From Escherichia coli (GTDB taxonomy: Bacteria > Pseudomonadota > Gammaproteobacteria > Enterobacterales > Enterobacteriaceae): a stretch of DNA of 64,000 nucleotides. The notes under the pieces are model-generated. The model saw only the letters and a program-made list of their open reading frames with translations. It ran no database searches and had not been told where the DNA came from. Location of the stretch: assembly GCF_024223415.1 (NCBI RefSeq), contig NZ_CP100500.1, one strand, 5' to 3'. Every line of letters starts with the position of its first letter. Position 1 is the stretch's first letter. The position numbers and the translations under genes were made by a program. Of this stretch, positions 36,394-42,069 are shown piece after piece.

Positions 36394-37071
36394 CTATTTT
36401 CCGATAAATTCAACGCTGGCACCGGTGGCATTACCGTCAGCACCAACCGTGACGGTCACTTTGTCGTACGCACGGTCTTCAGGATTGAACACTTCAAACT
36501 CAACCTTATTGCCTTTTACTTCGTAAGAGCCAAAATCAGCGGTTTCTGTTGTTTCCTCGTCATATTCCCGGGCGTATGCCTGCCGGGCAGCCTGCAGGAC
36601 GGAATCTTTATTAATGGCGGGTGTCTGTTTCGGGGAAAAATCGGCAAGTGATGTGACAAATTTCGGACAGACCTTCAGCATATCACCGCGGGTGAATTCC
36701 ATTCGTACACCAAATGCCTGTAAAACGGACACATCACGCTCTGCTATGGAGTGAACGGCTTTTTTGACCATTTCCGGCGCCTGTCCGACTTCCACCTCAA
36801 CAGCCCTGAATCCTGTCTGCTGATTACACATTTGTGATGTGGGGATCAGGTTACCGTTAATATTGATACGGCTGCCCAGGAGCGTCTGTACACCATTCGG
36901 GCATCCCTGCATCAGGCCGGTAATACCAATCGTGCCATTTTTCAGCATTACCAGCGCCTGACCATCTTCCGTCATGGTCTGACACCAGCCGTTTTTGACA
37001 GCCCAGTTGCCGGCGGAGGCGGAGAATGATGCCACAGTGAACAGCAGGGGAAAAAGAATTCTGGTATTCAT
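36394..37071 (-). CDS. Hypothetical exported protein (signal peptide)
   Basis: N-terminal [20 protein letters not shown] signal-like segment; 225 aa. Confidence 0.5.
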
Positions 37072-37189
37072 GACTGACCTCTGAAATTAAAGAGCGTGTT
37101 ATTGATAATGACAGACGGTATACGGCAGTGGTTACCGTAATCCGTTGTCGTGTAAAGGTATACGGTTGCCACGGGGGACTCCGGGGCGC

Positions 37190-38074
37190 TCAGAACAGGT
37201 GATCCCACAGTGTGACCAGCAGGTGGATAATGCGGTCCCGGGTTTTGCGCAGAAGCTGTAACATCCAGGCCGGAAAACTGAAACGGGCAACGGCGTCGTC
37301 AAAACTTTTCCCGATGGTTTCACCAAAAGTCTGTTGTGCGTGTTTCCGGGCCTGTTCAGAGCGGTTTTCCCCCCGGATATGTGAATAAACCGCACTGGTT
37401 GCCTGTGGTGGCAGTGCGTGGATCATCAGCGACACAAACGCCGGAAGGTTCCAGCCGACAGGTGCGGCAACGGAGAGTACCGGAAATGATGAAGGGAACA
37501 GGGTTGCCACCCGGGCTGTCACCGTCGCCAGTGAGAGCGCCTGCTGACGGGACGGGCATTTTTCTGTGTCGTTCCATTCTTCAGCAGGAAACACGCGATC
37601 GGCATGGCTGAGAACAAACAGAAAACGCGAGGGATCTGCACCTTCATTCAGTAAAAACTGATGCATGGCAATATCAGCAGCATACGCACGTTCATCAGCC
37701 CGCAGGATCCAGATAATCAGATCCAGTTCGGGCAGTAACTGACTGTAAAGTGCCCGGTATTCCTGATCATGCTGTGGTGTTTCGCCAGTGCCGGGCAGAT
37801 CGACCAGCGTCATTCTTCGTTCACCGGGCTGAAAGGTAAGACGATGAGCCTGACGGGTGCAGCCGTTCAGCGGATGCGTGGCGCAGACACGGGACTGAAA
37901 AATGGCATTGCACAGGCTGCTTTTTCCGGCACCGGATTTACCCATAATGCCAATAACGGGTTCGTACTGAATGACGCTGCGAAGATGTTCAAGGATTTTC
38001 TGGCGAATTTCTTCAGGAAGAAAGGTCAGATGTGACTTTACGTGTGCGGAGAGGGAAGAATGGCTGAATGACAT
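37190..38074 (-). CDS. GTPase of the YeeP/YkfA/YfjP family (50S ribosome-binding GTPase-like)
   Basis: G1 motif GIMGKSGAGKSSL, DLPG switch region; first gene of the CP4-like module. Confidence 0.8.
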   Translation of the reverse strand: MSFSHSSLSAHVKSHLTFLPEEIRQKILEHLRSVIQYEPVIGIMGKSGAGKSSLCNAIFQSRVCATHPLNGCTRQAHRLTFQPGERRMTLVDLPGTGETPQHDQEYRALYSQLLPELDLIIWILRADERAYAADIAMHQFLLNEGADPSRFLFVLSHADRVFPAEEWNDTEKCPSRQQALSLATVTARVATLFPSSFPVLSVAAPVGWNLPAFVSLMIHALPPQATSAVYSHIRGENRSEQARKHAQQTFGETIGKSFDDAVARFSFPAWMLQLLRKTRDRIIHLLVTLWDHLF

Positions 38075-38174
38075 ACCGTTATCCTGTTGATTTCACTGAA
38101 CCGGATCACATTAATCCGGCCTATCAGTCAGGTAATATGGACGTGAAAATTTTTCCATTGACGGGAAGAAGAGT

Positions 38175-39323
38175 ATGGCTAAAAACAAAGGTATCTGTCG
38201 GAATAAAAAATGCAGCAATCCTGTTTCAGAATTTGATGAGGCAAATGCCCTGAGGTTATGTGATGATCATTATCAGTTATGGAAACGAAATAAAGAGAAC
38301 CGTCGGGTCAGGAATATTTGTCGTATAATCAGTAAATATGACAAAAGTCTGGACCGGGAGATATTTGACAGAGTAATAGATGCTGCAAGAAATCAAACGG
38401 GAAAGAGAATTGTTGAGGACGCAAAAATATTACATCAATTGCGCAATTCAAAGCAAGTAAGAAAAAGTCTTCATAATGGAGTACTCCGGTCACGGGAATG
38501 GCTCAATACACAGGAGTTACTGAGAAGAAAAAATATATCTGTTACAGGTGACTCATTTAAATCTTACATAAAGGATATTGTCAGATTATATTGCTATAAG
38601 TTTCTCTACAGCAGAGAATATCTTAATGAAAACGCATACAAAAAACAATATCAGAGAGTTATTAACCCCAGAGAATTTAATGTTCCGATACTTCAACTTG
38701 AAGTTGCATGGATCAATAATAATTGCCGTTCAAGTGATTCAAGCTCTGATATTATCATCCTTCCCAGGATGATAAGAAGAATGGTTGTATTTAATGATAC
38801 GAAGATAAATAAACAATTAGAGGAAATGTTGGGGGGGATAGCACGAAAAAAAGTCGCAGTAAGGAATAAAGGCGGTCTCTATACCAGAATAAAAAAAGAA
38901 AATGATTTTCGTTCTATGGATAGATTTATGGTGGAAATCGAAAATATCATAAGACCTGAAATATTTCCGACATCAATTTACCCGCCTTTTTCACTTTCAT
39001 TTATCGAGAGAGAATTGCCACTACTGAATCTGGCGCACTCACAGTACAAAAGAGCAATAAGTAAAAAAGTGGCGAATTCAATTTTTTATACTTTGCGAAA
39101 AACTCACGTGGCATTATGGCTGCATCTTGAAATGTTTGCTCTTGTGGCATTCATCAAACTGTATACAGGAAAAGGGTTTGAATTCATGAAAAACATGTGT
39201 GTATTTATAGATTATGATAAAGGGATAATAAAATCCACGCATGAAGAACTGCTGAGTGAAATTAAGTGTAACATTCAGTTGAATTTAAAGGTGAATCCTG
39301 ATAATTTTCCTGAATTAATATAA
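38175..39323 (+). CDS. Hypothetical lysine-rich protein in very AT-rich DNA; N-terminal Cys/His cluster
   Basis: 382-aa ORF, N-terminus MAKNKGICRNKKCSNP...LCDDHYQLW; SD-like ggaag upstream; codon usage clearly foreign. Confidence 0.5.
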   Translation: MAKNKGICRNKKCSNPVSEFDEANALRLCDDHYQLWKRNKENRRVRNICRIISKYDKSLDREIFDRVIDAARNQTGKRIVEDAKILHQLRNSKQVRKSLHNGVLRSREWLNTQELLRRKNISVTGDSFKSYIKDIVRLYCYKFLYSREYLNENAYKKQYQRVINPREFNVPILQLEVAWINNNCRSSDSSSDIIILPRMIRRMVVFNDTKINKQLEEMLGGIARKKVAVRNKGGLYTRIKKENDFRSMDRFMVEIENIIRPEIFPTSIYPPFSLSFIERELPLLNLAHSQYKRAISKKVANSIFYTLRKTHVALWLHLEMFALVAFIKLYTGKGFEFMKNMCVFIDYDKGIIKSTHEELLSEIKCNIQLNLKVNPDNFPELI

Positions 39324-39904
39324 ATATACAATTCATGCTTTAGTAAAAATATATTGTTGTATGATGTTCAGGATGATGGTTTTAAATGGTGTTTATGATG
39401 TGAAAATATTAAATTTATATTACATTTTAATTATCGACAAAAAACACATAAAGAAATCTAAAGGGAATGAGCGTCAAATGAGCTGATATAGCGCCAGTTT
39501 GGTATGGTCATGTGATTTGATGATTAAAGCTTACGGATAATAACACTCCTCTGTGAGCCATATAAATGAGCATGCCATAATCGTCAGTTCAGAGATAAAA
39601 CTGACTGAATGATCTTATGTTATAGTAAGCAGTGTTTACCGGATACGATGACTTATCTCTCTCACATCATATGGATTCACTTTCATGGGGTAAAGCGATG
39701 GGACTACAGACGCTGATTATGATGGTTTGCTGTAAAGTTAGCACAAGTTTTTGCTGTACAGAATACGGAGTAAGAAAAATAATTCCAGAGTAAATCTGCT
39801 CTGCTTTTGAACAGAAAAGATTCATGCTTACCGTGAAAAACTGAAACCAACATTCAGTCTGCATGGATGTCTTAAGATGTTGAGAATGTCGGATATGGTA
39901 TTAT

Positions 39905-40060
39905 ATACACCTTTTCCATTAGGTCCTTTTATGTTTTCATTAAGTCGTTTTGTATGTATTCCTCCAGTGATTCATTAGTGCCTGTTTACGCATTTACACA
40001 CTTTTCCCATTAATCTCCTTTAAATGTGTTTCATTACGCATTGCTGTACACATTTTTGAA
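39905..40060. repeat. Two imperfect direct copies of a ~55-60-bp AT-rich unit
   Basis: acaccttttccattaggtccttttatgttttcattaagtcgttttgtatgtattcc vs acacacttttcccattaatctcctttaaatgtgtttcattacgcattgctgtacacattttt. Confidence 0.4.
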
Positions 40061-40981
40061 CTGATACACATCCAAGTTAGTAAACCTGTCAGTTCTGATT
40101 TTACGTTAACTAAATCAGTTTAATGCTGCTGTAAAACAATCCTTCCTGTTTAAGCAATCAATCTGCTATTCGATTTTACTGATGTGACGTTTAACCTTTC
40201 CTGAGCTTTGGTTGTTTGTGGTTTTTGGTTTGTGTTTCGACGTTAAGCTGAGAAAAGTATCTTTACGCTAAATCAACCCGAACTTTCCTGAGGTGATCTG
40301 ACGTTCTTTTCGATGTGCTTACGACGATTCTGTTAAACGACTTTCTGGATGTTTTGATAACAATCAGATTGAGGCATTAACGATTCCTGACGTTTTGCTT
40401 TTTCATGTAAGGTCATTGTTTTCGTCATGATGTGGTTTTTCTTCTTGCATTGCGAAAGTGTGATGATTGGTTTTGGTTTTTTGATTCAGATGAGATTTAC
40501 GTTATCGATGGTTAATCGTTTTTATGGTGAGTAGTGAAACGTAACATTTTCGGGATGAGAAAATCGATTCTGATGGTGATGGGGATGATCGTGTTACGGC
40601 GTTATCTGTAAACAGGTTTTAAACGTGTCATTCGCATTCGTGATTGAGTTGTGTGATTAAGCTGTAGGTTTTGGCGTTGTTGTTGATTTGCATTGCCAGG
40701 AAGCGTTCTGGTTGCGTTTCTGGTGTTTTGTTCGAATGTTCTGTGGATCCTTTTCCCTTCAGGCTTTTCTCGTCGTCCATGTCGTTTTTAAATCCATTCA
40801 TGCTGTTGTTGCGTGTTTTGCTGCTGTGTGCAGGATTATCTTTTCGTTCCGGGATGGTTTGTTCCGTTTCAATCACTCTTAATCAGAGAGTTGTAGCATT
40901 GCTTAATGACATGATGCCGTAAAGTTTTACCGCGGTGATTAATGATGTGAAGTCAATCCAAATCAACGGAGATCTCTCATC

Positions 40982-41713
40982 ATGAATCAACCAATACACA
41001 ATGCTTACTGGTTATCCCGTTTTGACAGCCTTCTCGACAGTGCCCTGTCGCAGCACCGTGCCGTCTCGTTAATCCGGGTGGATTTACGTTTCCCTGAGTA
41101 TATGCCTGTCACCATCATGGATCCCGATCCGGATTCAGCGGTGATTTCTCGTTTTTTCGAATCCCTGAAAGCCAAAATCCAGGCTTACCAGCGGAAAAAA
41201 CGACGTGCCAACAAGCGTGTGCGTGCAACCACTCTGCGTTATTTCTGGTGTCGGGAGTTTGGCAAGGAAAAAGGCAGGAAACATTATCACGTGATATTGC
41301 TGCTCAACAAAGATACCTGGTGCTCGCCAGGGGATTTCAGCGAACCATCTTCGCTGGCGACGATGATCCTGGAGGCATGGTGCAGCGCCCTGCATCTTGA
41401 GGCCTGGCAAGGCGATGGCCTGGTCCATTTTTCCAGGTGGACGCCTTCCCGTAAACCAGCATCGTCTGATGCTCGCCCTTCTTCCGATGACACGCCTTTG
41501 TCGGGTGGATGTTCTGATACCAGGAAGGCTTCAGAAAAAAAGCCGGGTGAAGCCGCTGTTCTCTGGATCAAGCGTGGTGATGTGGAAGCGCTGCAGAAAG
41601 CCCGGAACAGAGCCAGTTATCTCGTGAAATATGAGACGAAGCAGCATGACGGTTCCGGGCAACGTAATTATGGTTGCAGTCGTGGGCCGGGGCGTCTGCT
41701 GGATGGCAGGTGA
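40982..41713 (+). CDS. YagK/YfjJ-family protein (inovirus Gp2-like)
   Basis: 243 aa; ...SLIRVDLRFPEY...KHYHVILLLNKD... pattern recalled from CP4-element yagK/yfjJ genes. Confidence 0.55.
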   Translation: MNQPIHNAYWLSRFDSLLDSALSQHRAVSLIRVDLRFPEYMPVTIMDPDPDSAVISRFFESLKAKIQAYQRKKRRANKRVRATTLRYFWCREFGKEKGRKHYHVILLLNKDTWCSPGDFSEPSSLATMILEAWCSALHLEAWQGDGLVHFSRWTPSRKPASSDARPSSDDTPLSGGCSDTRKASEKKPGEAAVLWIKRGDVEALQKARNRASYLVKYETKQHDGSGQRNYGCSRGPGRLLDGR

Positions 41714-42069
41714 GCCCTGTAAAACGACATCCGGTGCCTGAGCTTATGCTACAGGACGTTGGCTGACGCCCTTAGCTCGTTTTCTGAAAAAGTCGTCCTG
41801 AAGTCATGCAACGGTATTTTTCTCTGCTTTCGCTCCTGGAAACACTCCGTCGGTAAAACCTTACTGTCCTGCTTAATGATGTGAACCGAAGTCAACGGAG
41901 ATCATTCATTCTGAACCTGCATCCGGTGTTCTGTCCCTTGTCGGTTACCTGATCTTCCCGTTCTGCCGCGGTTTTTCACTTATTCCATCAACCCCATACG
42001 CAAGCCATAACACGTCAGCGCATCCACGGGCAGGACGCGTTGTGGGCTGCGTATAACGGAACATATCTT

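Follow-up and report, generated by a model that had tools for sequence, protein, structure and literature searches.

A putative nuclease-dead, HNH-derived protein encoded beside the YfjP-type GTPase gene of CP4-like islands in Escherichia coli

The phage-type HNH (His-Me finger) endonucleases with N-terminal zinc loops, represented by PHROG families 8660, 1271 and 5351 and by the Pfam family HNH_4 (PF13395), carry Cys/His modules followed by a beta-beta-alpha segment, and the CP4-57, CP4-6 and CP4-44 islands of Escherichia coli K-12 carry a backbone of genes that includes yfjP, yfjJ, yagK, yeeP and cbtA/cbeA. The present study concerns a gene that resembles the former and resides in an island related to the latter. 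It lies in a stretch of 64,000 nucleotides of E. coli DNA (contig NZ_CP100500.1), hereafter the window, which holds an island of the CP4-57/CP4-44 type. There, an open reading frame (ORF) of 382 codons closed by a premature TAA is present on the + strand at 38175..39323, next to a YfjP-type GTPase gene, and is a truncated allele of a gene of 407 codons. The analysis suggests, with a probability of roughly 0.5, that the intact product is a zinc-dependent, nuclease-dead DNA-binding protein derived from HNH endonucleases, which would serve as the fast-evolving nucleic-acid-recognising component of a module formed with the GTPase and a WYL regulator. The anatomy and evolution of the gene are better supported than this proposed function.

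Architecture of the protein and its HNH-like core

Three parts make up the protein: a CCCH zinc module at the N-terminus, a core of beta-beta-alpha form, and a C-terminal domain of helices. The position of the ORF, its length of 382 amino acids (aa) and its N-terminus (MAKNKGICRNKKCSNP...LCDDHYQLW) had been given in an earlier reading of the letters of this DNA (the original prediction), and all three agree with the ORF list. The Cys/His residues C8, C13, C29 and H32, which include the motif RLCxxHY, constitute a putative zinc-binding module at 38196..38270 (+ strand). The arrangement C8-x4-C13...C29-x2-H32 is shared by at least 90% of the 16 full-length family members. P0014 and P0016 show the variant Cys spacing CxxC, P0018 carries two copies of the module, and P0034, P0038 and P0068 have a second Cys cluster after it. 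The four conserved metal-ligand positions thus have the knuckle spacing of zinc-ribbon or treble-clef-like modules. The zinc-binding motif that the original prediction regarded as possible gains support from the conservation of this ligand set (with x4 or x2), from the duplication and from the second clusters. In PHROG, residues 1-60 have a single, weak match, which is to the HNH family 5351 (E=0.041).

The core comprises aa 172-205 (ILQLEVAW...SSDIIILPRMIRRMV; 38688..38789, + strand) and was delimited by AlphaFold2 (AF2) modelling, column comparison and profile alignment. AF2 places two strands (175-179 and 193-197) and a helix (198-219) exactly on this segment, and the full model has a predicted local distance difference test score (pLDDT) of 77.7. 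The core-domain motifs SREWxNTQEL, SREYL, LEV and P..IRRMV are invariant in the nine closest members and mostly kept in the wider family, and the family-specific C-terminal helical domain of about 185 aa is marked by the motifs LPLxxLA, YLExFA and YNSxFS. In three distant members, P0034, P0038 and P0068, the core reads LE(V/I)SH..P..KGG....N.....P..INRM, and in the E. coli protein LEVAW........D....P..IRRMV, with W179, D192 and R201 aligned with the H, N and N of the former. These catalytic columns switch jointly: H/N/N is found in the three members just named (hereafter the H/N/N members), and W/F/Y/K, D and R in the 14 members of the island clade (E. coli, Klebsiella and Citrobacter), to which the window protein belongs. 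A profile built from the island clade only aligns end to end with P0038 and P0034 (E=2.6e-24 and 4e-21, scaled to 1.8 billion sequences), the posterior probability being high across the beta-beta-alpha segment, and on this profile evidence the homology of the E. coli clade with the H/N/N members is robust.

The link to HNH endonucleases passes through these distant members. P0038 matches PHROG 8660, 'HNH endonuclease', over aa 31-201 with E=8.8e-7, and its segment of about 50 residues taken alone matches PHROG families 8660 (1.3e-3), 1035, endonuclease VII (0.035), 1271 and 14314, as well as HNH_4 and HNH_5 of Pfam at E of about 0.1; HNH_4 is also matched by the P0034 segment. In NCBIfam, the P0038 segment aligns with the HNH regions of Cas9d (1.6e-3) and IscB (0.098), and the P0068 segment with that of Cas9d (0.11), while the PHROG matches of the P0034 and P0068 segments are limited to one family of unknown function. 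Most of these HNH matches are below threshold, yet all functionally named matches of the segment in the three libraries are HNH-type nucleases, and the zinc modules together with the beta-beta-alpha segment match PHROG 1271 collinearly. Since the homology with the H/N/N members is robust, the catalytic columns switch as a set and the named matches are to HNH nucleases, the family appears to descend from zinc-loop HNH endonucleases, and the clade found here appears to have lost the canonical active site.

In the window protein, the place of the catalytic His at the end of strand 1 is taken by W179, that of the Asn before strand 2 by D192, and that of the Asn/His metal ligand of the helix by R201. 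Curated HNH profiles of Pfam and NCBIfam give no match to it at E<=1, and its core gives none in PHROG at E<=10. By the defining catalytic features the protein stands outside the HNH family, from which it nevertheless appears to be derived. Because the H, N and N positions are now W/F/Y/K, D and R, the intact protein most likely lacks nuclease activity and is a basic protein that binds DNA, and the invariant R201 and R202 at the former metal-ligand site could contact the DNA phosphate directly. The protein contains 9.3% Lys, 8.4% Arg and 8.1% Asn, with an isoelectric point of 9.6 and a net charge of +25, whereas the proteins of neighbouring genes contain about 2% Asn and 2-7% Lys. The richness in these three residues noted in the original prediction is thereby confirmed, and its suggestion of a nucleic-acid-binding protein is plausible in view of the HNH-derived core and the basic charge.

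The original prediction did not recognise the family, and rightly so. Pfam, NCBIfam and PADLOC contain no match to the window protein at E<=1, a Pfam search over all 17 members returned noise only, the family profile found nothing at E<=10 among the sequences of PDB, where P0038 likewise gave noise, and Foldseek detected no significant structural neighbour in PDB or BFVD. A literature search by accession, K-12 gene names and island gene sets gave nothing on the ORF protein. The product is annotated everywhere as a hypothetical protein, apart from one UniRef label, 'Reverse transcriptase', attached to P0016 (Klebsiella michiganensis, L003 10001-11257). This name was rejected, as Pfam shows no reverse transcriptase (RVT) domain in any of the 17 members at E<=1, and it is probably an annotation error.

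A gene under selection, truncated in the window strain

The gene occupies 1,065 places in 974 of the 5,426 complete E. coli genomes and falls into two allele classes, one with at least 99% identity in 35 genomes and the other with about 91% in 932 genomes. The ratio of nonsynonymous to synonymous substitution (dN/dS) among the alleles is 0.19-0.34; the gene is under purifying selection and is a real gene. HMMER, run exhaustively over 1.84 billion representative proteins, returned only 26 clusters, with full-length relatives down to 24% identity, and a motif-based scan of 100,044 species-representative genomes returned two loci. The distant relatives share 20-37% identity with the E. coli protein, and the named hosts are Escherichia, Klebsiella and Citrobacter, together with an Enterobacteriaceae bacterium. 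The presence/absence comparison proposed with the original prediction thus places the gene in E. coli as well as in islands of Klebsiella and Citrobacter. Searches of phage and plasmid collections by tblastn with the family protein, and of phages with the N-terminal half of P0038, gave no match, and a word-indexed search with P0038 retrieved only itself. One further record, L019 6001-7179, comes from a genome labelled Chryseobacterium sp. 18061 and shows the enterobacterial island layout, with a family member and a Gp2-like gene (GC content 0.47), as in Enterobacteriaceae bacterium RIT691; it is probably a contamination or a mislabelled assembly.

The native gene, as annotated at the same position in RefSeq genomes, corresponds to 38175..39398 of the window (1224 nt, 407 aa), and its products (WP_045147348.1, WP_109897010.1 and WP_001107219.1) are all named hypothetical proteins. 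The reading frame of 382 aa described in the original prediction is therefore real, although it is not the length of the native gene, and the possibility considered there, that the ORF is a fragment of a known gene, proved true in the sense that it is a truncated allele of a hypothetical one. The window sequence and the allele of strain GF60 are identical at 1223 of 1224 nt, and the sole difference, G->T, converts GAA to TAA (E383*; 39321..39323, + strand), as seen in the alignment with two intact alleles. The T at codon 383 occurs in none of 42 complete E. coli genomes of the same allele class, each of which is one base off the window 61-mer; on these grounds the nonsense change is private to the window strain and presumably recent.

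The truncation costs 25 residues, including the YNSxFS motif and a terminal beta-hairpin predicted by the model, and leaves an untranslated remnant, codons 384-407 with the native stop, at 39324..39398 (+ strand), which was recognised by translation of the intact alleles. In the lost part, Y385, N386, S387, F389 and S390 are invariant in the nine-sequence family alignment (A2), and Y385 and N386 also in the wider family alignment (A3). The AF2 model of the intact C-terminus contains a helix at 378-386 and strands at 394-397 and 402-405, and its mean pLDDT declines from about 90 (residues 371-390) to 80 (391-400) and 68 (401-407).

Codon 383 is polymorphic, encoding E, D or N in other copies and a stop in the window. 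Draft assemblies of many independent samples break in or just after it (ends of L009-L012), 16 contigs encode a 382-aa form, and further 'partial' forms of 375-389 aa occur. A recurrent stop at this codon had been considered from P0004, a protein of 382 aa belonging to the other allele class, and was rejected, as the end of P0004 is an assembly break at the end of a contig.

The truncation is accompanied by a deletion on the other side of the GTPase gene. Compared with other strains, about 915 bp carrying a gene of a WYL/helix-turn-helix (HTH) regulator are absent between 37130 and 37190; in those strains this DNA encodes a 226-aa HTH/WYL-domain regulator and lies between the genes of a 225-aa hypothetical protein and of the GTPase. 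Strain GF60 lacks still more of this region than the window does. With a shortened ORF and no WYL regulator gene, the module of the window has probably lost its function.

An exchangeable cassette and the low-GC tract

The gene is a part of a swappable cassette, which was delimited at 38150..39776 (+ strand) by comparison with E. coli 357900. Besides the ORF, the cassette takes in downstream DNA, about 380 bp counted from the native stop or about 450 bp from the premature one. The two sequences share 94% identity across the GTPase gene and onwards as far as 38149 in the intergenic region; beyond this point, E. coli 357900 carries two unrelated-looking genes, and similarity returns as 69% over 39777-40494 and 90% from 40795. 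In the slot of that strain (L020 5991-7804), the two genes are a 320-aa relative of the ORF that lacks the zinc module and a convergent gene of a 284-aa hypothetical protein of unknown family. The alternative slot occupant is a distant member of the ORF's own superfamily; it was found at 816 places, and part of the 320-aa gene is present in 742 E. coli genomes.

The GC content of the ORF is 0.338 and that of its third codon positions (GC3) 0.31, whereas the GTPase gene next to it has a GC3 of 0.54 and the whole window a GC content of 0.50. The profile in 1-kb windows falls from 0.54 to 0.36, 0.34 and 0.39 over 38001-41000 and returns to 0.52, the flanks being at 0.52-0.56. The contrast between an AT-rich ORF and its flanks described in the original prediction is therefore real, although the drop is not confined to the ORF: the low-GC tract extends from about 38150 to about 40950 (about 2.8 kb), and about 1.6 kb of it are gene-poor. 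The values of 0.34-0.39 over 38001-41000 lie far below the average, as would be expected of xenogeneically silenced (H-NS-bound) AT-rich island DNA, and the same applies to the Klebsiella and Citrobacter loci.

From this drop, the original prediction had concluded that the ORF was acquired separately by horizontal transfer. One part of this claim stands, as 38150 to about 39776 is indeed swappable on a backbone of 94% identity. The other part does not: the orthologues of Klebsiella and Citrobacter occupy the same position with a GC content of about 0.33 and an equally sharp limit at the GTPase gene, and the synonymous divergence (dS) between the E. coli allele classes is 0.24 for the ORF gene and 0.236 for the GTPase gene. 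Because the GC content of the orthologues is equal and the dS equals that of the GTPase gene, the low GC content is an old, maintained trait of the family and not a mark of recent arrival. This corrects a common shortcut, in that a sharp drop in GC content is not evidence of recent acquisition here.

The cassette junction (38149/38150) is placed directly after a promoter-like element in the control region that separates the divergently oriented GTPase gene and ORF (38075..38174, assigned to neither strand), which was analysed in a six-locus alignment across genera. All six loci share the sequence GTAATAT (38132-38138), which precedes the ATG by about 38 nt and is followed by GGACGTGAAAA up to 38149; ahead of it lies a GC-rich inverted repeat, CCGGAT-N7-ATCCGG, at 38101-38119. 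The arms of the repeat vary from locus to locus, yet their complementarity is kept in four of five distinct sequences, with ATCCTGGC-N7-GCCAGGAT in Citrobacter and ATGCCG-N13-CGGCAT and GCCGG-N11-CCGGC at other loci, while the Klebsiella locus has no clear repeat. A perfect TTGACA is located inside the loop of the Citrobacter repeat. This element may represent a conserved promoter with an operator or a hairpin, and the repeat could be either an operator over the -35 box or a hairpin in the 5' untranslated region of the GTPase mRNA. A simple promoter scan found fewer sites than in shuffled sequences and did not call the conserved GTAATAT.

On the other side of the cassette, an AT-rich, T-skewed and gene-poor backbone segment leads to the Gp2-like gene (39777..40620, assigned to neither strand; defined by E. 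coli genome comparison). The tract 39777-40950 has an AT skew of -0.28, and parts of it are present in 1,457 E. coli genomes, where they are almost always unannotated. Rfam gave no match over 37000-42000, and a repeat search of the AT-rich tract yielded short two-copy families of chance size and no iterons. The tract may serve the rolling-circle-Rep-like YagK/YfjJ protein as an origin or as a regulatory region. It also contains, at 40628-40876 on the - strand, an 82-aa low-complexity hydrophilic ORF annotated as hypothetical (WP_000573215.1), which has no Pfam or PADLOC match and may be a spurious call.

Island neighbours, proposed function and known systems

The family is found in P4-integrase-type islands of Enterobacteriaceae, which carry the YfjP-type GTPase, DUF932, an antirestriction gene, RadC, CbtA/YeeU, AlpA and YagK/YfjJ. 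The YfjP/YeeP-type GTPase gene of the window is located at 37190..38074 on the - strand (Pfam MMR_HSR1, E=2e-14; 'YfjP family GTPase' in RefSeq) and opens a leftward module that continues with the genes of a 225-aa hypothetical protein, DUF905, DUF932, the antirestriction protein, RadC, DUF987, YeeU/CbtA and DUF4942. The rightward, + strand module consists in order of the ORF, a YagK/YfjJ ('inovirus Gp2 family') gene at 40982..41713 (+ strand; Pfam YagK_YfjJ_C, E=4e-37, and REP_ORF2-G2P, E=2e-10) and AlpA. The YagK/YfjJ gene holds the same relative position in the Klebsiella, Citrobacter and further loci.

In the relatives of 27-37% identity (Klebsiella, Citrobacter and metagenomic contigs), the GTPase gene is divergent, about 95-105 bp away and usually adjoined by a WYL regulator gene, and the downstream genes include AlpA and YagK/YfjJ. 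In the H/N/N members, the genes follow one another on one strand: integrase, a 141-aa and a 74-aa protein, the family gene, the GTPase, WYL and, further on, DUF932. The family gene and the GTPase gene are adjacent in eight of ten lineages. The two genes diverge in the island clade and point the same way in the H/N/N members, so that their adjacency has outlasted a change in orientation. The exceptions are the P0019 lineage, which has no GTPase gene but keeps WYL, and P0034, which has an insertion sequence element downstream. The GTPase is conserved at 51-67% identity, compared with 20-37% for the ORF protein. Close alleles of the GTPase gene were found at 2,539 places in 1,882 of the 5,426 complete E. 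coli genomes, and roughly three quarters of these copies face one slot variant or the other.

The protein fills a fixed slot by the GTPase gene, right behind a conserved promoter-like element, and diverges much faster than its neighbour. The reading put forward here is that it would act together with the GTPase, and probably the WYL regulator too, as a nucleic-acid-recognising or specificity component. Several observations weigh against it. The E. coli protein matches no HNH model and its core gives nothing; the one clearly significant HNH match belongs to a single distant member, with weak or no matches for P0034 and P0068, and the core modelled alone is poor (pLDDT 61). The partnership with the GTPase is suggested by synteny, by the equal dS of the two genes and by the alternative slot occupant being of one superfamily with the ORF protein, while the P0019 lineage retains the protein without a GTPase, and about a quarter of the close E. 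coli copies of the GTPase gene face neither slot occupant (2,539 places versus 1,065 and 816). Moreover, AlpA and the Gp2-like gene run in the same direction as the family gene in the island clade, and a role in an AlpA/Gp2 module fits this synteny equally.

Such a role would make the protein an accessory factor of the AlpA excisionase/regulator and the Gp2-like rolling-circle Rep, for example one that recognises sites for excision, replication or mobilisation on the adjacent AT-rich non-coding DNA and does not act with the GTPase. It is consistent with the position of the island-clade gene at the head of a rightward array with AlpA and YagK/YfjJ, with the conserved unannotated AT-rich tract before the Gp2-like gene, which could hold an origin, and with a dead HNH domain and a zinc module, which would suit sequence-specific DNA binding. 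Downstream of the gene in the H/N/N members, however, lie the genes of the GTPase, WYL and DUF932, and neither AlpA nor Gp2 is called there on these short contigs; AlpA and Gp2 do not keep a constant order with respect to the gene, and the AT-rich tract shows neither iterons nor strong repeats; this explanation is considered rather unlikely. A nuclease that is still active through other residues (E176, D192 and the SRE motifs) is much less probable. E176 is nearly invariant beside the lost His, the island clade has D192 throughout, and the SREW and SREY motifs, invariant in the nine closest members, are still mostly present in the wider island clade; but the three canonical HNH positions have changed together, the metal-ligand site is an invariant Arg, and the E. 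coli core matches no nuclease model.

The exchange of the cassette on a 94%-identical backbone, with its sharp junction at 38149/38150, could also be expected of anti-phage defence or anti-defence cargo acquired apart from the backbone, as the original prediction had suggested, and acting alone or, as an abortive-infection or sensor system, with the GTPase. The very fast divergence of the AT-rich gene relative to its neighbour (20-37% versus 51-67% identity), the restriction-modification and other defence genes near it in related islands, the partial match of the GTPase to the LeoBC model of Eleos and the WYL regulators of the neighbourhood agree with this, as regulators of this kind often accompany defence systems. 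It is nevertheless as doubtful as the AlpA/Gp2 role, as PADLOC-DB v2 is blank for the window protein (E<=1) and for P0013, P0016, P0034 and P0038 (E<=0.01), tblastn places the gene in neither phages nor plasmids, the slot is filled by one superfamily and not by unrelated cargo, and the gene has co-diverged with the GTPase gene and lost its nuclease residues in the clade found here. The least credible explanation is a meaningless ORF in AT-rich junk, either a chance frame or a long-dead pseudogene. The nonsense mutation of the window copy and the annotation as hypothetical in every source bar the unsupported UniRef label might point to it, but for the family it is refuted by purifying selection (dN/dS 0.19-0.34), by full-length homologues of 20-37% identity in several genera with conserved motifs and synteny, and by the confident AF2 model, and the stop is private to the strain.

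A bolder extension of the preferred reading, in which the HNH-derived protein is the nucleic-acid-recognising partner of the GTPase, is that this protein, the YfjP-type GTPase and the WYL regulator constitute an undescribed three-gene system, with the exchangeable pseudo-nuclease giving specificity to a dynamin-like GTPase effector. This is a speculative proposal that is probably incorrect in its full form. If it were true, the system would serve defence against phages or rival elements or the control of island transfer, and the H/N/N members would be its ancestral, still-cleaving form. The local significance of the finding is low, the window copy being a fresh pseudogene. About a third of complete E. 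coli genomes, however, hold a close allele of the island GTPase gene, most copies with a superfamily member beside it. What was found on the slot occupants, that is, an HNH derivative apparently without catalytic residues, its tie to the GTPase gene across genera and orientations, and the exchange of the cassette behind a promoter-like element, provides a testable handle on the unexplained conserved backbone of CP4-like islands.

Summarizing the comparison with known systems, the protein family shares with the phage-type HNH endonucleases the collinear order of Cys/His modules and beta-beta-alpha segment and the segment form LE-x-x-H...P..GG...N...N, and P0038, P0034 and P0068 keep H/N/N and match the models of these enzymes (best E=8.8e-7). 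The window clade differs by W/F/Y/K, D and R at the catalytic sites and by the absence of matches to HNH models, and the whole family by the added C-terminal domain of about 185 aa and by being encoded in chromosomal islands and not in phages. The segments of P0038 and P0068 also align with the HNH regions of Cas9d and IscB (NCBIfam NF049971 and NF040563; E=1.6e-3 to 0.11); only about 40 residues align, far under the curated cut-offs, and the family has no RuvC domain, guide RNA or CRISPR context, so that this likeness is at the superfamily level only. The neighbouring GTPase resembles Eleos (LeoA/LeoBC) by its match to the PADLOC LeoBC model, which concerns the C-terminal part only (aa 181-285, E=7.8e-8), and by weak Dynamin_N similarity, with weak nSTAND1-like matches besides. 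About 90 of 601 profile positions are covered, the GTPase has 294 aa, LeoA is absent and the ORF is blank in PADLOC; the match is therefore a lead and not a membership. Finally, the family has no K-12 gene name, but the CP4-57, CP4-6 and CP4-44 islands of K-12 share the backbone genes of the window island, and their segment from the GTPase gene to the YfjJ-like gene is variable, K-12 presumably carrying different genes there.

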